A stretch of 64,000 bases of DNA, taken from assembly GCF_963921235.1 (NCBI RefSeq), contig NC_086108.1, positions 16,554,001-16,618,000 on the forward strand, written 5' to 3'. Shown here one piece after another: positions 3,313 through 48,162 of the stretch (positions are counted from its first letter, which is position 1; the number at the start of each line of letters is the position of its first letter). The notes under the pieces are model-generated. The model saw only the letters and a list, made by a program, of their open reading frames with translations. It searched no databases and was not told where the DNA came from. Both the position numbers and the translations under genes were made by a program. The DNA is from Mobula hypostoma (taxonomy: Eukaryota).

Positions 3313-4075
3313 CAGGACTTAGACAAATTGGAAGAATGGGCAAAAAAGTGGCAGATGGAATACAGTGTTGGGAAATGTATGATAATGCATTTTGGTGAAA
3401 GAAGAAATAGTGCAGACTATTATTTAAATAGAGAGAAGGTTCAAACATCAGAGGTGCAGAAGGACTTAGGAATCCTCGTGCATGACTCCCAGAAGGTTAA
3501 TTTACAGGTTGAGTCTGTGGTAAAGAAGGCAAATGCAATGTTGGCATTTATTTCAAGGGGAATAGAATATAAAAGCAAACAGATAATGCCAAGGCTTTAC
3601 AAGACATTAACCAGGCTGCACTTGGAGTATTGTCAACAGTTTTGGGCCCCATATCTCAGAAAGGATGTGTTGTTATTGGAGAGAGTCCATAGGAGGTTCA
3701 CGAGGATGATTCAGGGAATGAAGAGGTTAACATATGAGGAGTGTTTGGCAGCTTTGGGCGGGCACTCACTAGAATTTAGAAGAATATGGCGGGGTGGGGG
3801 TGGGAATCACACTGAAACCTACCAAATTTTGAAAGGACTATATAGGGTGGAGGTGGAGAGGATGTCTCCTTTGGTGGGGGTATCCAGAACTAGAACAAAA
3901 TTGAGGGGCGACCTTTTAGAACAGAGGTAAGGAAGAATTTTTTAAGCCAGAGAGTAGTGAATTTGTGGGATGCTCTGTCAAGGTGGAGGTCAAGTCCGCT
4001 GGTATACTTAAGGCAGAAGTTGATAGTTTCCTGATCAGTCAGGGCATCAAAGGATATGGTGAGGTGGCAGGTGTA

Positions 4076-4365
4076 TCTTCTTCGGCTGTCCATCAATTTT
4101 CAATGTTGACTGAGGCCTGGGCAAGGTTGTATAAAAGACCGGCAGTTGCCTATGCTGCAAGTCTCCCCTCTCCACACTACCGACGTTGTCCAAGGGAAGG
4201 GTACTAGGGGTACTAGAACTCATACAGCTTGGCACCAGCGTCATTGCAGAGCAATGTGTGGTTAAGTGCTTGCTCAAGGACGCAGCACGCTGCCTCAGCT
4301 GAGGCTCGAACTAGCGACCTTCAGATTACTAGACCGACGCCTTAACCACTTGACCACGTGCCACA
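4076..4365 (-). mobile_element. tRNA-derived CORE-type SINE with (GAA)n tail
   Basis: A box TGGTCAAGTGG, B box GTTCGAGCC, CORE-like ccttgagcaagcacttaacc, short GAA tail. Confidence 0.75.
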
Positions 4366-19170: not shown

Positions 19171-20850
19171 AATTGATGTCCAAAGTTGAAAATTCAAAGT
19201 AAATTTATTATCAAAGGACATACAGTATACGCCACTATATACTACCTTACGATATATTTTCTTTCAAACATCCACAGTAGAATAAACAAATACAAAAAGA
19301 GTCTTTGAAAGTGAGTCCATAGGTTGTGGAATCAGTTCTGAGTTAAGGTGAATGAAATTACCCACCCTGGCTCAGGAGCCTGATTGTTGAAGTACTCCTG
19401 AACCTGGTGCTGTGGGAACTAAGGGTCCTATACCTTCTTCCCAATGGCAATAGTAAAAAGAGCCTGGATAGTGGGTGTCCTTGATGATGGATGCTGCTTT
19501 CTTGTGGCAACACACCTTGTAGATGTGCTCAATGGTGGGGAGGGCTTTTCCTGTGATGGACTGGGCTGTATCCACCACTTTTTGTAAGCTTTTCTGTTCT
19601 TGGGGATTGATGTTTCCATACCAGGCTGTGATGCAACCAGTCAAGATATTCTTCATTGTGTATTAACAGAGATTTGTCTAAGTTTTAGATGACATGCTGA
19701 ACTTGCACAACTTCTAAGAAAATAGCAGTGTTGTTGTGCTTTTTTTTGTGATGGCACTTACTGTACCGGTTCCTCTGATATGACAATGACAAGGTATTTA
19801 ACGTTACTGACCCTCTCCACCTCTGATAGCTTAATGGGCACTGGCTCATCAACCCCCAATTTCTTCCTCCTGTAGTCAATAATGAACTGTCTGGTTTTGC
19901 TGATGTTGGTTGTTGTTCTGGCATCATTCAACCAGAGTTTCAATCTCCTTCCAAAATGCTGATTCATCACTACCTTTGATTCAGCCAACAAAAGTGGTGT
20001 TGTCAGCAAACTTAAGTAAGGCATTGGAGCTTACTTAATCAAGCAGTCATAGGTATAAAGTGAGTAGAGCACGGGGCTAAGCACAAAACCTTATGGTGTA
20101 TCTTGCTGATGGAGATTATGGAGACATTGTTGCCAATCTGTACCAATTGGGGTCTGCAAGTGAGGAAATAGAGGATCCAGTTGTACAGAGAAGTATCGAG
20201 GCCTAGGTCTTGGAGCTTAGTGTTTAGTTTCGAGGGGATGATAGTGTTGAATGCTGAGCTGTAGTTAATGGAGAGTATCTTGATATACTTCTTTGTCCAG
20301 ATGTTCAAGAGGAGATTGAAAAGCCAGTGAAATGGCATCTGCTGTTGACCTGTTGCGACAGTAGGCAAACTGGAACAGATCCAAGAGACTCCTCAGGCAC
20401 GATTCGATATGTTTCAGGATCAACCTCTCAAAGCACTTCATAACAGTGGATGCAGGAGCTACTGACAATAGTCATTGAGGCAGGTATGACTGAAGCCTGC
20501 TTGATGCAGATCGGTACCTCAGGCTGCAGAAGTGAGAGGTTAAAGATATCAGTAAACACTCCAGCCAATTGATTAGCACAGGTTTACAGTCCTTGGCCAG
20601 GTACACCACCTAGGAAAGATACTTTCTGTGGGTTCACCATCCCGAAGGATGCTCTCATATCAGCTTCAGAGATTGCGATCATAGGGTTGTTGAGGGCTGT
20701 AGGGGTTTGTGAAAGTACCTCCATGTTCTGTCGGTCAAAGGGAGTATAAAAGGTATTGAGCCCATCTGGGAGTGGAAACCTTGTTGTTATTTATGTTGCT
20801 TGGTTTGGCTTTGTAGGAGCTGATGGCATTCAAGCTCTGCCATAGCTATT
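19170..20850 (-). mobile_element. Decayed Rex1/Babar LINE
   Basis: Fragments [39 protein letters not shown]. Confidence 0.85.
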
Positions 20851-21800
20851 GAGAATCAGAATAAGATTTATTATTACCGGCGTGTGACATGAAATTTGTT
20901 AACTTAGTAGCAGCAATTCAATGCAATACATAATATAGAAGAAAAAGTAATAAAATAATAATAATAAGTAAATCTTATTCAGTATACTTTATACAGCATA
21001 TGTATATTGAATAGATTAAAAAATTGTGCAAAAACAGAAACACTATATATTAAAAAAAAGTGAGTTAGTGTCCCAGGGTTCAATGTCTATTTAGAAATTG
21101 GATGGCAGAGGGGAAGAAGCTGTTCCTGAATCACTGAGTGTGTGCCTTCAGGCTTCTGTACCTCCTACCTGATGGTAACAGTGAGAAAAGGGCATGCCCT
21201 GGGTGCTGGAGGTCCTTAATAATGGACGCTGCCTTTCTGAGACACTGCCCCCTAAAGATGTCCTGGGTACTTTGTAGGCCAGTACTCAAGATGGAGCTGA
21301 CTAAATTTACAACCCTCTGCAGCTTCTTTCAGTCCTGTGCAGTAGCCTCTCCACCCCCCAATACCAGACAGTGATGCAGCTTGTCAGAATGCTCTCCATG
21401 GCACGTCTATAGAAGTTTTTGAGTGTATTTGTTGACATACCACATCTCTTCAAACTCCTAATAAAGTATAGCCATTGTCTTGCCTTCTTTATAACTGCAT
21501 CAATATGTTGGGACCAGGTTAGATCCTCAGAGATCTTGAAACCCAGGAAACTGCTCACTCTCTCCACTTCTGATCCCTCTATGAGGACTGGTATGTGTTC
21601 CGTCCACAATCAGCTCTTTCGTCTTACTGACGTTGAGTGCCAGGTTGTTGCTGCAGCACCACTCCACTAGTTGGCATACCTCACTCCTGGACACCCTCTC
21701 GTCACCCCTGAGATTCTACCAACAATGGTTATATCATCAGCAAATTTATAGATGGTACTTGAGCTATGTCTAGCCATATAGTCATGGGTACATAGAAAGT

Positions 21801-21951
21801 GCTATCCCTCCCTGACACCCCAAAGGTTAGTCCACCTTTGGTCCCCACCTGGCACTCAGCTCTCACCTGTGGCTCCCCGTAGCTGTTTGCATGCGACAGC
21901 GGCCACACCCCGGGCAACGGCTTCGACAAGCTGGCTAAACCAGGTGAGGGT
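21801..21951 (+). ncRNA. HDV-like self-cleaving ribozyme (variant; P1 5' strand inverted in this copy)
   Basis: P2 ctcacctg/caggtgag; P3 ggc/gcc; L3 tccccgt; 7-nt P1' acacccc; P1.1 gg; gcaa; P4 cggctt-cgac-aagctg; J4/2 gctaa with catalytic-position C21935. Confidence 0.7.
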
Positions 21952-22330
21952 AGCCGACGGGTCTCAAACCCTCGGTGAGATAGGGAGTTGTCTATCCCAG
22001 CATGTGAAGACAGACTCCGGCGGATTGAGCAGACGAGACCAATGGAAGGTCCAACGGTCAAGAAGGCGGTCTCTGCAAGCGTCGCGGAACGTGTAGAGCA
22101 GGACAAGACACAGAAGGTGACCTGGTCATCCACTGTGCCTAGTCCCATCTCCAGCCGTCTAGACTCTGTCTTGCCACTGGACCCAGATGGGAATTGGGAA
22201 GAGAGAGTGAGGCTGACGCTGCGCAACTCTCCCTCACTTAAATCCAAATCACGCGCTAGTCTCGACAACATCATTATGGTGTCGAGGTCCTCATCGACAT
22301 CAATGATGGACGAACAACAACAACAACAAC
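21801..22330 (+). mobile_element. Short non-autonomous retroposon (probably RTE-derived) with HDV-like ribozyme head, inverted 5' terminus and (CAA)n tail
   Basis: Inserted in Rex1 with ~11-bp TSD acatagaaagt/atatagagagt (2 mismatches); CpG-rich; (CAA)6 tail; no recognisable protein. Confidence 0.75.
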
Positions 22331-24796
22331 ATATAGAGAGTAGAGCAGTGAGCTAAGCTCACACCCGAAGTGCACCAGTGTTGATCGTCAGCGAGGAGGA
22401 GATGTTATCAGCACATCGCACAGATTGTGGTCTTCTGGTTAGGAAGTCGAGGATCCAATTGCAGAGGAAGGTACAGAGGCCCAGGTTCTGCAATTTCTCA
22501 ATCAGGATTGTGGGAATGATGGTGTTAAATGCTGAGCGTTAGTCGATGAGTAGCATCCCAACAGAGGTGTTTGTGCTGTCCAAGTGGTCTAAAGCCGCAT
22601 GGAGAGCGATTGAGATTGCATCTGCCATCGACCTATTGTTGAGCATCCTTCTGTGATTCAATTTTGGTCTGGAATTGCCACCACATGTGAGATAGCTTTC
22701 TGAGGTTAGACCTGGATTTCTTGTACTTTCCTGGATTGCCAGTCCTGAACACCATCGATCCAGCTATCAGCAGGCTGTGGATCTCGTCTCATCCAGTGCT
22801 TCTGGATGGGGAAGACGTTTAACGATTTTGTGAGGATTCAAGTGTCTTTATGAAGTCTGTGACAACCATGGCGTATTCATTCAGGTCCTCTGATAAATCC
22901 TTCAACATGTCCCAGTGCAATGACTCAAACAATCCCATCATTGTGCCTCTGTCTTTCACAACTACCTCTCTGATGTCTTGCTCTTTACCCTCTGCCTGTA
23001 TGCAGGTAGGAGGAGGACAGCTAGATGATCAGATTTCCTGAAATATGGTCTAGAGATGGAACTGTAGGCATTTTTGATGGTAGTTTAGCAACGATTGAAT
23101 GTGTTACATGCTCTGGTGCTGCAGATGATGGTAAAAGGGCAGAGACCTCTTCAAGTAGTCTGATTGTAGTCCCCAGCTTTATATGAAAGGTGTCAGGATA
23201 AGCTGTTTCTTGTTTGATAATCATGCTACTCAATACATCAAGTGCTGGGACCAGGATCATAACAGAGAACTCTCAGTAAGTAGAACAGTCAGCACTTAAT
23301 CAGTAGATAAACCAGGTCAGGAGAACAAGAGTGAGACTACACTGCTACATCTGAGCACCACGATGTTTTTTACTTTGTCTAATTCCATTAATAATTTCTA
23401 AGTGTTATCACATCCTTGCTTGTAGATTTTAGTATTTTCCTTATTTTTGATGTTTGGCTAACCAGGATGCAGTTTCCTGTTCCCTCCTTTTAAACAGAGT
23501 GGCTACATTTGGCACACACTAATTTGCAGGAGCCATGCACAACCCATGAAAATTTGGGAGATGTCAACCAACGTATATACTAGCCTTTTCAGTATTCCGA
23601 GATACATTTTATCAGGTCCTGGGGATTTATCAGCATTTGATCCTATTAGTTTCTCCAGCAGTTTAAAAAAAAAACTAATACCGGTTTTACTCCTTTCTAA
23701 ACGATTTTTGGTTTTCAATCATTTCTGGGAAGTTATTTCTGTTCTTTGAGAGGGCAGAAGGCATAATCAAAGTATTTGTTAACTGGTTCTTCTCTTCCTT
23801 ATTATACAATTCCCTGTTACTGCTTTGAGGACACTACAATTTTCTTTTCTTCATTATAACTTTACAGTTCAAATTTAACATTCTTTTTGAGTTTTGCTTT
23901 TGCTTTCCTAGTCAGTCTCTTTCATCACTTTTGCTGAAGTCTAAACTGCTGCCATTCCTCGGAGTTAGCAGTTTCGCTAGCAACAACATAAGACTCCTTT
24001 CGAAATCCAGCATTTTTGTTAGCCATATTTGGGTTATTATTTCTTTTATGTTGCTACACCAGAAAGGTATGTATAAATATTGCAGTGTATTCATTTGCAC
24101 TCACTCATGGCTTGTGACATAATTTCATCAACTTTCACTGAGCTTATTCAGCTGCTTGTGCAAAATCATCAAGGATATAAATCTACAGAGAATTGTGTAC
24201 AAGAGCCAGGGTAAACCACAATGTTTAAATTTGAGAGGGAAACTAGTCAGGGTATGAGTGAAGTGACAAAGCTTATAGTGCATAAACATTGACAGATTGT
24301 TGCATTTGTAGGAAAATGGAGAGATCAAAGACAGAAGCTGAGAATTCTCCTCATGGATGTGGTACACTATATGTTTAAACATGTGAAGGACTGGGATGGA
24401 AGGAGGCTGAGTAAGGATAGCAGTGACCCATACTGCTGCTGTGAAACTAGGGAACAGTAGTCTACTTCCTACAAAAGTAACACTTTCATCAGGTCACTGA
24501 CCATTTTTGATGAGAAAGCATTGATGACACTCAAAAGCAACATTCATAACAACAGTCTGGATTTCAACTTACAGATGTCTCAAATGCTGCAGGTGCTCAT
24601 TCAAATCAGCTGCTCAGTGTCAGTTGCAAGTGACTACTATTCTGATACAAAAGAGTCTTTCTATCATCCATAACAGGACAAGTCAGAAGTGCGATCGAAT
24701 ACACTTCACCTGCCGGATGACTACAGCTCCGACAACACCAAAGGTACCACCCGGGCCACAGCAGTCTAATTGATAAGCAACCCATCCACCTCCTTA

Positions 24797-39867: not shown

Positions 39868-41621
39868 CATAGAAACCATAGAAACTACAGCACAGAAACA
39901 GGCCTTTTGGCCCTTCTTGGCTGTGCCGAACCATTTTCTGCCTAGTCCCACTGACCTGCACACGGACCATATCCCTTCATACACCTCCCATCCATGTATC
40001 TGTCCAATTTATTCTTAAATGTTAAAAAAGAACCCGCATTTACCACCTTGTCTGGCAGCTCATTCCATGCTCCCACCACTCTCTGTGTGAAGAAGCCCCT
40101 CCCCAATGTTCCCTTTAAACTTTTCCCCCCTCACCCTTAACCCATGTCCTCTGTTTTTTTTCTCCCCTTGCCTCAGTGGAAAAAGCCTGCTTGCATTCAC
40201 TCTATCTATACCCATCATAATTTTATATACCTCTATCAAATCTCCCCTCATTCTTCTACGCTCCAGAGAATAAAGTCCTAACTTATTTCACCTTTCTCTG
40301 TAACTGAGTTTTTCAAGCCCCGGCAACATCCTTGTAAACCTTCTCTGCACTCTTTCAACCTTATTTATATCCTTCCTGTAATTTGGTGACCAAAACTGAA
40401 CACAATACTCCAGATTTGGCCTCACCAATGCCTTATACAACCTCATCATAACATTCCAGCTCTTATACTCAGTACTTTGATTAATAAAGGCCAATGTACC
40501 AAAAGCTCTCTTTACAACCCTATCTACCTGTGACGCTACTTTTAGGGAGTTTTTTATCTGTATTCCCAGATCCCTCTGTTCCACTGCACTCCTCAGTGCC
40601 TTACCATTAACTCTGTATGTTCTACCTTGGTTTGTCCTTCCAACGTGCAATACCTCACACTTGACTGTATTAAACTCCATCTGCCATTTTTCAGCCCATT
40701 TTTCCAGCTGGTCCAAGTCCCTCTGCAGGCTCTGAAAACCTTCCTCACTGTCTACTACACCTCCAATCTTTGTAACATCAGCAAACTTGCTGATCCAATT
40801 TACCACATTATCATCCAGATCATTGATATAGATGACAAATAACAATGGACCCAGCACTGATCCCTGAGGCACACCACTAGTCACAGGCCTCCACTCGGAG
40901 AAGCAATTCTCTACTACCACTCTTTGGCTTCTTCCATTGAGCCAATGTCTAATCCAATTTACCACCTCTCCATGTACACCTAGCGACTGAATTTTCCTAA
41001 CTAACCTCCCATGCGGGACCTTGTCAAAGGCCTTACTGAAGTCCATGAAGACAATATCCACTGCCTTCCCTTCATCCACTTTCCTGGTAACCTCCTCGAA
41101 AAACTGCAATAGATTGGTCAAACATGACCTACCACACACAAAGCCATGTTGACTCTCTCTAATAAGTCCCTGTCTATCCAAACACTTGTAGATTCTGTCT
41201 CTTAGTACTCCCCCCAATAACTTACCTACTACCAACGTTAAACTTACTGGCCTATAATTTCCCGGATTACTTTTCGATCCTTTTTTAAACAACGGTACAA
41301 CATGAGCCACTCTCCAATCCTCCGGCACCTCACCTGTAGACAGTGACATTTTAAATATTTCTGCCAGGGCCCCTGCAATTTCAACACTAGTCTCCTTCAA
41401 GGTCCGAGGGAACACCCTGTCAGGTCCCGGAGATTTATCCACTTTAATTTTCCTCAAGACAGCAAGGACCTCCTCCTTTTCGATCTGTACAGTTTCCATG
41501 ATCTCACTACTTGTTTCCCTTAATTCCATAGACTTCATGCCAGTTTCCTTAGTAAATACAGATGCAAAAAACCTATTTAAGATCTCGCCCATTTCCTTTG
41601 GTTCCGCACATAGCCAACCAC
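39868..41621 (-). mobile_element. Young 5'-truncated CR1 LINE, same family as 91-1692
   Basis: 445-aa RT ORF nearly identical to ORF 165-1715; same 3' tail. Confidence 0.95.
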
Positions 41622-41651
41622 TCATATGTGAAAGTTCGTGGGGTGGTATGT

Positions 41652-42180
41652 ATTATAAATAAGCCTGTGAAACAGTGATAACTGCTTTGGTGCTGAGCTT
41701 GTTAATTTCATCAACTTTGCCTCCAACTTCCACCCTGCCAAGAAGAACTCTATTCCTTTTATGGCAGCAGGGGGATAGAGTGAGTGTGGATCTCCAGAAA
41801 ATAGATACGAGGGTAGAATCAATGGTAGAGGAAGAGAAACTCCATTCTTTGAACAAGAAAGACACCTCAGGAGTTCTGGAATGGAAAATCTCATCCCAAT
41901 CACAGATGCCACATAGAGGAAGAAATGAGAAAAGCACTTTTACAAGTGACAGGATGGGAAGTAGCTGTCCAGAGAGCTGTGACAGTCAGTAGGTTTATAA
42001 AAGATACCAATAGACAGTCTGTCATCAGAGATGATGATAGAGATATTGAAAAAGAGGAGAGAGGTACTAGAGATGGATGAAGTGAATTTAAGGGCAGGGT
42101 GGAAGTTGGAGGCAAAGTTGATGAAATTAACAAGCTCAGCACCAAAGCAGTTATCACTGTTTCACAGGCTTATTTATAAT
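41652..42180. repeat. 88-bp perfect inverted repeat around a Penelope RT fragment
   Basis: 41652-41739 is the reverse complement of 42093-42180. Confidence 0.9.
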
Positions 42181-44121: not shown

Positions 44122-47100
44122 AGAAACATAGAAAATAGGCGCAGGAGTAGGCCATTCGGCCCTTCGAGCCGGCACCGCCATTCAGCATGATCATGGCTGA
44201 TTATCCAACTCAGGACCCTGTACCAGCCTTCCCTCCATACCCTCTGATCTCTTTAGCCACAAGGGCCATATCTAACTCCCTCTTAAATATAGCCAATGAA
44301 ATGGCCTCAACTGTTTCCTGCGGCAGAGAATTCCACAGATTCACCACTCTCTGTGTGAAGAAGTTTTTCCTCATCTCGGTCCTAAAAGGCTTCCCCTTTA
44401 TCCTCAAACTGTGACCCCTTGTTCTGGACTTCCCCAACATCAGGAACAATCTTCCTGCATCTAGCCTGTCTAATCCCTTTAGGATTTTATACGTTTCAAT
44501 AAGATCCCCCCTCAATCTTCTAAATTCCAATGAGTATAAGCCTAGTCGATCCAGTCTTTCATCATATGAAAGTCCTGCCATCCCAGGAATCAATCTGGTG
44601 AACCTTCTTTGTACTCCCTCTATGGCAAGAATGTCTTTCCTCAGATTAGGGGACCAAAACTGCACACAATACTCCAGGTGTGGTCTCACCAAGGCCTTGT
44701 ACAACTGCAGTAGTACTTCTCTGCTCCTGTACTCGAATCCTCTTGCTATGGATGCTAGCATATCATTCGCCTTTTTCACCGCCTGCTGTACCTGCATGCC
44801 TACTTTCTTTCTTTCTTTTTCAATCTTTTTATTAATTTCGAAGTATAGAAACAAAACATAGCAATAATACAAATAGTAGGAGAAATATTGTTACACTTAG
44901 GAAAAGTAATTGTAAAATTAAATAGTGAAAGTTAACAAAGCTCCCAATCATGTAGAACTGACAACGGATAATACAAATCAAAAAAAAACTGAAAAAAAAA
45001 ATCATGGAAAAGAAAAAACAAAACCAAAAAAAAACAAACCCCATCCCCAAAGAAAAACAGAATTAACCAACTAAACTAAAAGACTTGGGCAAAACTAACA
45101 ACATAAAAATGGAAAAGAAGAAAACCTCAGCGTCGACGACTCCATTCCCCTCCAACAACAGTACAGAGAGATAAAACAAGTTTGGAAATGATCAAATTAC
45201 ATCAAGTGAAAATGCTGAATGAATGGCCTCCAAGTTTTTTCAAACTTAATGGAAGGGTCATAAACTGCACTTCTAATTTTCTCCAAATTCAAACACAACA
45301 TAGTTTGTGAAAACCAATGAAATACCTTAGGAGGGTTAATCTCTTTCCAATTCAACAAAATGGACCTTCTAGCCATTAAAGTAAGAAATGCAATCATCCT
45401 TCGTGATGAAGAGGTTAAATTATTTAAGTCTATCATTGGTAGTCCAAAGATAGCAGTAATTGGATGACGTTGTAAGTCTATGTTTAGGACCGTTGAAATA
45501 ATATCAAAAATATCTTTCCAATATTTCTCCAACAAGGGACATGACCAAAACATGTGGGTTAAAGAAGCTATCTCAGAATGGCATCTGTCACATATTGGAT
45601 TAATATAAGAGTAATAACGAGATAGTTTATCTTTGGACATATGAGCCCTGTGCACTACTTTAAACTGTATCAACCTATGTTTAGCACATACCGAGGATGA
45701 ATTCACCAACTGAAGAATTTTTTCCCATTTTTCAGTCGGTATATTAATCTCAAGTTCTCTTTCCCAGTCAGCTTTAACTTTATTAGAAGCATCAGGACAT
45801 AAATTCATAATTATATTATATATAATTGCTACTACACTTTTCTGAGAGAGATTTAAATCTAAGATTTTTTCCAAAATGTCCATTGGATATGGGTGTGGAA
45901 AATTAGGGGAAACAGTAATTAAAAAGTTTCTAATCTGTAAATATCTCATGCCCACTTTCAATGACTGGTGTATAATGACACCCAGGTCTCGTTGCACCTC
46001 CCCTTTTCCTAATCGGCCACCATTCAGATAATAATCTGTTTTCCTGTTCTTGCCACCAAAGTGGATAACCTCACATTTATCCACATTAAATTGCATCTGC
46101 CATGAATTTGCCCACTCACCTAACCTATCAAAGTCACCCTGCATCCTCCTCACAGCTAACACTGCCGCCCAGCTTTATGTCATCCACAAACTTGGAGATG
46201 CTGCATTTAATTCCCTCACATAAGTCATTAATATATATTGTAAACAACTGGGGTCCCAGCACTGAGCCTTGCGGTACCCCACTAGTCACTGCCTGCCATT
46301 CTGAAAAGGTCCTGTTTATTCCCACTCTTTGCTTCCTGTCTGCCAACCAATTCTCTATCCCCATCAATACCTTACCCCCAATACCGTGTGCTTTAAGTTT
46401 GCACACTATCTCCTGTGTGGGAACTTGTCAAAAGCCTTTTGAAAATCCAAATATACCACATCCACTGGTTCTCCCCTATCCACTCTACTAGTTACATCCT
46501 CAAAAAATTCTATGAGATTCGTCAGACATGATTTTCCTTTCACAAATCCATGCTGACTTTGTCCAATGATTTCACCGCTTTCCCAATGTGATGTTATCAC
46601 ATCTCTGATAACTGACTCTAGCATTTTCCCCACCACCGATGTTAGGCTAACCGGTCTATAATTCCCTGGTTTCTCTCTCCTTCCTTTTTTAAAAAGCGGG
46701 GTTACATTAGCCACCCTCCAATCCTCAGGAACTAGTCCAGAATCTAAAGAGTTTTGAAAAATTATCACTAATGCACCCACTATTTCTTGGGCTACTTCCT
46801 TAAGCACTCTGGGATGCAGACCATCTGGCCCTGGGGATTTATCTGCCTTTAATCCCTTCAATTTACCTAACACCACTTCCCTACTAACATGTATTTCCCT
46901 CAGTTCCTCCATCTCACTAGACCCTCTGTCCCCTACTATTTCCAGAAGATTATTTATGTCCTCCTTAGTGAAGACAGAACCAAAGTAGTTATTCAATTGG
47001 TCTGCCATGTCCTTGTTCCCCATAATCAATTCACCTGTTTCTGTCTGTAGGGGACCTACATTTGTCTTAACCAATCTTTTTCTTTTCACATATCTATAAA

Positions 47101-48038
47101 AGCTTTTACAGTCAGTTATTATGTTCCCTGTCAGTTTTCTCTCATAATCTTTTTTCCCTTTCCTAATTAAGCCCTTTGTCCTCCTCTGCTGGACTCTAGC
47201 ATTTTCCCCACTGGGAATTTCTCCCAGTCCTCAGGTGAGCCGCTTTTTCTAGCTAATTTGTATGCTTCTTCTTTGGAATTGATACTATCCCTAATTTCCC
47301 TTGTCAGCAATGGGTGCACTACCTTCCCTGATTTATTCTTTTGCCAAACTGGGATGAACAATTGTTGTAGTTCATCCATGCGACCTTTAAATACTTGCCA
47401 TTGCATATCCACTGTCAACCCTTTAAGTGTCATTTGTCAGTCTATCTTAGCTAATTCACGTCTCATACCTTCAAAGTTACCCTTCTTTAAGTTCAGAACC
47501 TTTGTTTCTGAATTAACTATGTCACTCTCCATCTTAATAAAGAATTCCACCATATTATGGTCACTCTTACCCAAGGGGCCTCTCACAACAAGATTGCTAA
47601 TTAACCCTTTCTCATTGCTCAATACCCAGTCTAGAATAGCCTGCTCTCTAGTTGGTTCCTCGACATGTTGGTTCAAAAAACCATCCCACATACATTCCAA
47701 GAAATCCTCTTCCTCAGCACCCTTACCAATTTGGTTCACACAATCTATATGTAGATTGAAGTCACCCATTATAACTGCTGTTCCTTTATTGCACGCATTT
47801 CTAATTTCCTGTTTAATGCCATCCCCAACCTCACTACTACTGTTAGGTGGCCTGTACACAACTCCCACCAGCGTTTTCTGCCCCTTAGTGTTATGCAGCT
47901 CTACCCATATCGATTCCATATCCTCCCAGCTAATGTCCTTCCTTTCTATTGCGTTAATCTCCTCTCTAACCAGCAATGCTACCCCACTTCCTTTTCTTTC
48001 ATGTCTATCCCTCCTGAATATTGAATATCCCTGAATGT
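44122..48038 (-). mobile_element. CR1 LINE (partial AP endonuclease plus RT, frameshifted), interrupted by L1
   Basis: ORFs 47437-48054 (GVVYRPP, MGDFN, SDH), 46406-47089, 46134-46406 and 44210-44872. Confidence 0.93.
44808..45946 (-). mobile_element. 5'-truncated L1/Tx1-clade LINE (CCHC C-terminus, 3' UTR, A-rich tail)
   Basis: QFKVVHR, CDRC...HMFWSC, W.PF motifs; AATAAA plus (GAAA)n tail; 13-bp TSD catgcctactttc/catgcccactttc. Confidence 0.9.
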
Positions 48039-48162
48039 TGGTTGGTTTTACCAACAGAACCCACAGATCATGAAAATCTTAATGAAAAGCCACAAAAAAA
48101 GTAATACTTCATGAAGAATTCACATTACCCAATAAGGTGATGGGAAATGAACAATACACCTC

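Follow-up and report, generated by a model that had tools for sequence, protein, structure and literature searches.

The ribozyme drz-Agam-2 itself heads an RTE element, and position 27 of the HDV ribozyme is dispensable. HDV-like ribozymes are described from RTE elements (PMC6765202, PMC5786205), and in the study of Webb et al. (2016; PMC4908430) a structured J1/2 pinch is reported to make drz-Agam-2-1 faster by orders of magnitude. In the literature text covered, natural HDV-like ribozymes vary in J1/2 and P4, and L3 is treated as a short conserved loop. Bipartite RTE derivatives, as an element type, and RTE-linked HDV-like ribozymes are both already in print. The short retroposon family analysed here is of this element type and has an HDV-like head, in which L3 is enlarged.

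One such element lies in the window, that is, the whole stretch of 64,000 nt that was analysed (Table 1). It is inserted in an older decayed LINE, whose reading frame runs on across the joined flanks of the element; one of the five frames tested in this LINE gives a Pfam hit, to PF09004 only, which does not settle its clade. The window appears repeat-rich, with further LINE remnants (RT or endonuclease Pfam hits) at 168-1784, 40291-41652, and 45200-48078 and no host gene among the frames tested. All the segments that an earlier, sequence-only reading had named in the element (P2, P3, L3, the insert, P1′, GG, GCAAC, P4, and GCUAA) are in place between 21859 and 21951, and the extra pairs U21870-A21939 and G21869-C, with one bulged C, bring P2 to 12 bp.

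Table 1. Features of the element in the window and of its insertion site (coordinates of the window; rows are those of the 12-row alignment described in the text).
Feature	Coordinates	Strand	Evidence or remark
Probable 10-bp target-site duplication, 5′ copy	21790..21799	+	8/10 match to 22331-22340
Inverted 5′ piece of the element, family positions 10-31	21800..21821	-	Sequence comparison with the family
3′ remainder of the J1/2 domain	21825..21858	+	21848-21857 is the 3′ arm, base of P1.2
P2, 5′ strand	21859..21870	+	Pairs with 21939-21951 (12 bp, one bulge); L100, L136, and L076 have two-sided changes
P3, 5′ strand GGC	21871..21873	+	Invariant in 12/12 rows; fixed by the pattern in the 5 metagenome rows
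L3, canonical part UCCCCGU	21874..21880	+	U20 = 21874, C21/C22 = 21875-76 (P1.1), G25 = 21879; features of the PMC6326823 descriptor
L3 insertion, 21 nt	21881..21901	+	A, then a hairpin of 5-6 bp (21882-87/21895-900), then G; relatives have 19-22 nt, sister family E has none
P3, 3′ strand GCC	21902..21904	+	12-row alignment
P1, 3′ strand (P1′) ACACCCC	21905..21911	+	Partner is family positions 1-7, absent in the window copy
P1.1 GG (21912-13) and J1.1/4 GCAA	21912..21917	+	Sub-threshold alignment to the Rfam RF02682 consensus
P4 hairpin, 6 bp	21918..21933	+	Two-sided changes at 3 pairs; G-U pair at 21932 through a copy-specific C>T
J4/2 GCUAA, putative catalytic C21935	21934..21938	+	C in 41/41 aligned near-full-length copies
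P2, 3′ strand	21939..21951	+	12-row alignment
Rest of the RTE 5′ UTR	21952..22270	+	Similarity to LINE family B, L089, RTE-11_PSi
RTE-type 3′ end (hairpin) and (AAC)n tail	22271..22330	+	Similar to RTE-1_PSi 3726-3767 and to the end of MAR4_MD; approximate junction with the 5′ part
Probable target-site duplication, 3′ copy	22331..22340	+	Pairs with 21790-21799
Older decayed LINE, insertion host, not part of the element	21134..23028	-	RT-like frames to either side of the element

The 5′ end of the window copy consists of the reverse complement of family positions 10-31, followed by three A and then by family position 69 onward, so that positions 1-9 and 32-68 are missing. The 7-mers of 21600-21860 reach at most 5/7 pairs with P1′; because no upstream 7-mer restores P1, this helix cannot form and the copy should be inactive. 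The window copy is, judging from its sequence, a dead, 5′-inverted, partly deleted insertion. Its inversion looks like one produced by twin-priming, and similar 5′ inversions occur in L046, L056, L075, and L077. The sequence-only reading chose the inverted piece as the 5′ strand of P1, a choice that has to be given up. The GGGUGUCAGG of this piece is the 5′ arm of the J1/2 helix, pairing at -15.3 kcal/mol with 21848-57 versus -11.8 with P1′ and with a probability of 0.83-1.0 within that helix, and the true P1 strand lies 9 nt upstream. The reconstructed RNA proposed in that reading for a cleavage assay lacks the true P1 5′ strand (the first 7 nt of the element) and the 37 deleted nucleotides, for which reason a false negative would probably be expected from it. 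The inverted piece was also considered as a mark of the cleaved 5′ end of the RNA, an idea dropped on finding that most copies begin 9 nt further upstream. Around the junction of the 5′ and 3′ parts (22259-22287) the family has a near-perfect palindrome, and a second hairpin precedes the tail.

A DNA search of the 3.48-Gb assembly with 21780-22340 gives 3,187 candidates, of which the best 39 other matches are 96-98% identical and start at query position 46-57. The core pattern has at least 1,505 exact matches in this genome versus 0 for the reversed control; hence, the arrangement of these segments in the window is not chance. Intact copies of this family, hereafter family A, are ~570 bp long and end in (CAA)n, and 41 of them diverge by 1.2-4.1% from the majority sequence. 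They start with GGGGTRTAT GGGGTGTC, which contains two copies of the P1′-complementary strand at a spacing of 9 nt; the 5′ strand complementary to ACACCCC, whose absence would have told against the sequence-only reading, does therefore exist in the family. After removal of nine loci that were repeat retrievals of the same insertion, there are 68 pieces of family A, 13 lacking more than 20 nt of the 5′ end and 55 having it. The 9-nt leader, with at most one mismatch, is found in 39 of these 55 (position 6 being G in 21 and A in 18), and the internal repeat is the start in at most 3. Since the loci were chosen with queries that lack the leader, its frequency is not a selection effect. The sequence upstream of position 1 is unconserved except for a T bias at -1 (23/39).

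Exact target-site duplications (TSDs) of at least 7 nt flank 33 of the 51 copies that have both ends; for shuffled pairs the mean is 0.37 and the maximum 3. They measure 7-13 nt in 32 of the 33, and in 21 they end within 3 nt of G1. The first base is A in 26 of the 33, a count biased towards A by the search, which allowed up to 3 nt of overlap with the tail. RTE elements with (CAA)n ends and TSDs of up to about 13 bp starting with A are reported in PMC6007223. Some copies have extra partial 9-nt leaders between the TSD and G1 (L015:1427-1441, L083:2837-2845, L038, L047, L059), a pattern suggestive of the RT slipping back by one repeat on reaching the template 5′ end. In others the usual tail is replaced beyond ~517 by a different repeat (L082:697-1213 and 3769-4280, L075:4868-5305, L083:2268-3412), possibly a chimeric subfamily, and L083 holds two family A copies head to tail. 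Among 24 listed sequencing runs, none of them raw RNA reads, the element or part of it occurs in 20 rows (organisms A-H); four runs were examined, with 0 reads from two of raw DNA and 46 and 2 records from two sets of contigs. Two other element types were considered and rejected. A Pol III SINE would have a tRNA, 5S, or 7SL head, and Rfam gives no such match over the element, whose head is RTE UTR from its first base. An R2 SIDE is rejected on the grounds that copies are dispersed over many contigs with unrelated flanks and that the relatives encode an N-terminal APE endonuclease.

These relatives are RTE elements; the sequence-only reading had named both R2 and RTE elements as carriers of such ribozymes, and the link to RTE is supported. 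Family B, found in the same genome via matches to a variant motif, is a 4-kb LINE in which the same head is followed by endonuclease and RT frames. Over about 500 nt the element is 70-71% alike with family B and 77% with the metagenome locus L089. Family A aligns only to the UTR of family B, not to its coding part; the head of B is ~70% shared with that of A, and the 3′ sequence is different. A scan of metagenomes gave at least 60 loci, with a pattern that demanded an insert of 8-36 nt, so that hairpin-less relatives are uncounted; the full fold is present in five of them (L089, L100, L101, L136, and L142), and 55 of the listed 60 were rejected for having no P2. Long endonuclease frames lie downstream of the head in L089, L100, and L136, with Pfam Exo_endo_phos in the first two and CFDP2-like clusters among the Atlas neighbours. 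In family B, L089, L100, and L136 alike, the head stands upstream of EN-RT frames. In the two other metagenome loci the head is followed by intronless cargo instead of RT: a ubiquitin-specific protease frame in L101:2389-3978 (PF00443, E 6e-41), and a peptidase M16 fragment with an OTU deubiquitinase frame in L142:1-2056, which has another head 1.8 kb further on. Such loci may represent ribozyme-headed tandem units with captured deubiquitinase genes. Family C is a 70% alike relative with 4,347 candidates, known from one decayed, 5′-truncated copy only (L083:4196-4517), which keeps the L3 hairpin and has a different P1′ and P4.

Family positions 357-505 correspond to positions 370-519 of the Repbase element RTE-11_PSi, with differences in 11 of 150 columns (about 93% identity, counted by hand from the print of the Kojima 2018 supplement), and the 3′ end of family A resembles those of RTE-1_PSi and MAR4_MD in the same supplement. 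The combination of an RTE UTR segment with an RTE 3′ end makes family A a bipartite non-autonomous RTE of the MAR4_MD kind. Its composition indicates that family A is a non-autonomous bipartite RTE derivative with a deleted coding region. The likeness of the window UTR (22113-22261, ~93% identity) to a turtle element suggests horizontal transfer if the host is not a turtle. A search with the 3′ end returned short copies only and no LINE among 30 loci, and no LINE sharing both ends with family A was found in the genome. A further LINE family (G000:C12:114339853-114342297 and others) matches L089 from query position 223, directly downstream of the ribozyme, through the coding region. The match excludes the head, so that the 5′ structure of this family may be of another kind.

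The fold was analysed in an alignment of 12 rows: three of family A, three of B, one of C, and the five metagenome loci, in which P3, P1.1, and J4/2 are fixed by the search pattern. The named structure is paired in 93.9% of 410 cells, with 8 two-sided pairs. None of 500 shuffles reaches this pairing, a test inflated by kinship among the rows, and slid controls pair in 30-49%. Two-sided changes occur in P1, P2, and P4. On the covariation check suggested by the sequence-only reading, support comes from these three helices; P3 and P1.1 do not covary, and the hairpin stem shows mostly G-U-tolerant changes. Intact heads share a 7-nt P1 at the first base of the element, a long structured J1/2, a 12-bp P2, the CC/GG of P1.1, and the C in GCUAA, so that the HDV-like fold with an L3 hairpin that had been read at the head of a short retroposon is seen in intact copies of the family. 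The P1.1 pairs and G25 are each intact in 39 of 41 aligned copies. Position 24 (C24) is A in L089, L100, and L101, and the CUAA of J4/2 differs from the CRRA of the PMC6326823 descriptor and equals the RF02682 consensus. It is nearly certain that the family head has an HDV-like fold.

P1 is the helix that the window copy has lost, and in the relatives its columns are misaligned in L100, L069, and L073, P1 having been anchored by hand too. In the upstream register P1 covaries (U2-A in L089, A1-U in L100, A6-U in the sister family E, see below), and in L089 only this register pairs. As is typical of HDV-like ribozymes, whose P1 has 6-7 bp, the helix opens with a purine paired to a pyrimidine at the putative cleavage site. 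Pairing is complete (7/7) in L010, L089, L100, L101, L136, and E, 6/7 in the family A variant with A at position 6, and 5/7 in the decayed family B copy L068. The A-C mismatch of this variant is present in 18 of 39 full leaders (-8.3 kcal/mol, versus -11.8 for the other form); in family B the mismatch is C-A, at position 7. Mismatches in P1 can lower activity, and about a quarter of R2 ribozymes have one or two at the top of this helix, according to PMC3774820. With the upstream register, J1/2 forms one long domain closing 0-1 nt before P2, and this domain is more stable than with the internal register in 7/7 heads folded. The pinch architecture of J1/2, with the internal repeat as its 5′ arm, explains the inheritance of the leader.

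Rfam gives no HDV-type match on 20000-24000 of the window, nor on five further loci; the best alignment, to RF02682 over GGCAAC-P4-GGCUAA, scores 13.2 bits against a gathering score of 44. The sequence-only reading had expected standard descriptors to miss the ribozyme on account of its hairpin. Rfam does miss the head, but a sister with a canonical L3 is missed too, and hence the miss is not attributable to the hairpin and the comparison is non-discriminating. Among viral contigs, a loose pattern has 7 matches, none with P1 and P2, and a tighter one has 0; 12 matches in prokaryotic genome contigs were all judged to be chance. One viral locus (L062:1499-1561) resembles the 3′ half of the ribozyme (model E 0.006) and has no P1 partner, probably also by chance.

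In all hairpin-bearing rows the L3 insert is 19-22 nt long, is bounded by A and G, and has a stem of 5-6 bp. The structural variant family of the sequence-only reading is thus recovered, with this hairpin between L3 and the 3′ strand of P3 in intact copies, RTE LINEs, and the five metagenome relatives. The stem, which lies outside the search pattern, is paired in 98% of cells, and the loop has 5 to 9 nt of variable sequence. At two stem positions U-A is replaced by U-G, and L136 has a single G-A at the stem base; the only two-sided change comes from the single decayed copy of family C, so that covariation support for the hairpin is modest. The hairpin by itself is weak evidence, as 4% of shuffles of the insert fold as well, and the case for it consequently rests on the relatives. 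L3 has 26-29 nt in families A and B and in the five metagenome relatives, and 7 nt in the sister family E; the usual length in HDV-like ribozymes is 7-8 nt, and for this reason the head is classed as a variant and not as a plain member. A pairing of the 5′ strand of the insert with similar bases just before P2 was rejected, being broken by three relatives. We think it quite probable that the L3 hairpin forms as drawn.

The sister family was found without the pattern, by searching a model built from the alignment over 63 sources, which returned L076:813-1000. Family E is a high-copy short retroposon (L076:530-1000, minus strand, ~460 bp, GAA-type tail, 1,281 candidates). It has its own G1 start, A6-U in P1, a swapped P2 pair, and a 7-nt L3 with no insert, and its head lacks the repeated P1 strand. 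Exact matches number 29 for its canonical motif, 9 of which fall among the 39 other top matches, and 1 for the copy-specific form. The equivalent of the catalytic C, U20, G25, and CC/GG are all kept. Because family E has the same fold with a 7-nt L3, the scaffold is HDV-like and the hairpin is the difference between sister lineages. One would take the hairpin for a lineage-specific insertion rather than a loss in family E, since L3 is short in other HDV-like ribozymes.

The best explanation is probably a ribozyme-headed, self-cleaving RTE derivative with a tolerated L3 hairpin. The element would be copied by RTE proteins via target-primed reverse transcription, and the first ~200 nt of its RNA would fold into an HDV-like nested double pseudoknot. 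In a read-through host transcript, cleavage would take place 5′ of G1, the first base of the element, via the nucleotide corresponding to C21935; it would strip the host sequence and leave a template with a defined, protected 5′ end. The long J1/2 helix may pinch P1 against the 12-bp P2, as in the RTE-linked drz-Agam-2, and by hiding the internal repeat would cause the upstream P1 to be used. The 5-6-bp hairpin, inserted on the 3′ side of L3 (after position 26), would in its presumed three-dimensional placement point away from the core and be tolerated. On this model, self-cleavage is likely in the source elements of the family.

The fold may also be real and cleave poorly or not at all, being kept as a protective or protein-binding 5′ structure while the 5′ end is set by an internal promoter at G1. 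Such an explanation, which we consider unlikely, would account for the P1 mismatches that family B and roughly half of the full leaders have inherited, and for a 21-nt insert beside the active site. In primary sequence the head is strongly conserved among elements that are 70-77% alike elsewhere, which could result from protein or promoter constraint, and the trypanosome Pr77, both promoter and ribozyme (PMC3383444), counts in the same direction. However, the catalytic C, U20, G25, and CC/GG are kept in a hairpin-less sister found without the pattern, the pinch architecture is the one reported for fast ribozymes, and P1 is a perfect 7 bp in the autonomous L089, L100, and L136. Quite improbable is a rearranged core or switch with P3 lengthened by 2 bp into P1′, a pair between U20 and the final G of the insert, and the hairpin stacked on P3; the RNA would then stay inactive until P1 invades. 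RNAalifold does draw P3 extended into P1′ and U20 paired with that G (alignment columns G119-C157, U120-A156, and U124-G152, the U-G in 12/12 rows), and with pseudoknots left out the ensemble of a full copy favours a different fold (hairpin 0.1, P3 0.0). The mismatches at the top of P1 fall where the P3 extension competes, and the flanking A and G of the insert are invariant. Yet the extension pairs never covary, RNAalifold cannot draw pseudoknots, and family E has the same core without the insert, with covariation of P1 position 6. That the HDV likeness is chance pairing in a G+C-rich RTE 5′ UTR is scarcely credible, for although no Rfam threshold is reached and shuffles can equal the hairpin alone, three helices including the pseudoknot P1 have two-sided changes, G1 is the first base of the element in several lineages, and a sister has a textbook L3.

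If the self-cleaving derivative is accepted, it offers a mechanism for 5′-end definition in this RTE lineage and for its mostly full-length short parasites. The hairpin lineage and its hairpin-less sister in the same genome form a natural pair for probing the tolerance of the active site, and the lineage argues for wider search descriptors. No natural L3 insertion in HDV-like ribozymes was found described in the literature text and the Kojima supplement, which were the scope of this comparison, nor is one mentioned in the available parts of PMC13188248, PMC4035085, and PMC9901934; the L3 hairpin may well be undescribed, the chances of a prior description being near even. A bolder and rather doubtful proposal is that of an undescribed active subclass with a structured domain in L3, heading a whole wide-ranging RTE lineage, in which the conserved hairpin is a functional handle beside the active site, for RTE protein binding or as a folding switch. 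The UTR segment behind the head is common to Repbase RTEs of sea anemone, annelid, lamprey, coelacanth, turtles, alligator, and opossum (including RTE-1_MD), and the UTR segment of family B, compared by eye, is shared with RTE-1_MD. The UTRs of RTE-1_MD are described as template arms of a gene-writing platform (PMC13708176). Should RTE-1_MD share this head, template design would have to reckon with self-cleavage or 5′ protection, as it does for R2.

Among known systems, drz-Agam-2 of Anopheles is described in PMC4908430 with the same large structured J1/2 (P1.2), short linkers, 12-bp P2, and expected cleavage at the first base of P1. It differs in that the text of that paper mentions no L3 insertion and in that the 5′ arm of P1.2 is here a near-repeat of the P1 5′ strand; the drz-agam models of Rfam give no match on the element heads. 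As for the element as a whole, MAR4_MD, RTESINE1/2, and WALLSI3 (Kojima 2018, PMC5786205) are likewise bipartite, with the same UTR segment and the same kind of 3′ end. The segment begins at 346 in MAR4_MD and 370 in RTE-11_PSi versus family position 357 (PMC5786205), and total length is similar, the MAR4_MD alignment in that paper reaching 552 compared with ~570 bp for family A. In the Kojima supplement, whose print of these elements omits their initial ~340 nt, the head motifs have 0 matches. R2 ribozymes and R2 SIDEs (PMC3774820, PMC3414825) show the same minimal parasite made of a ribozyme head and a 3′ end, the long J1/2, tolerated mismatches at the top of P1, and duplicated P1 strands able to shift the cleavage site (PMC3774820); the R2 ribozyme passages of PMC3774820 describe no L3 hairpin. 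Unlike R2, which is rDNA-specific and has a different endonuclease, family A is dispersed, with 7-13-bp TSDs and an APE-type partner. Finally, the element has the equivalents of U20, C21, C22, G25, and C75, as do the genomic HDV and F. prausnitzii (RF02682) ribozymes, and it departs from HDV in an L3 of 28 nt versus U20-U27 (as given in PMC1874588) and in a J1/2 of about 95 nt.
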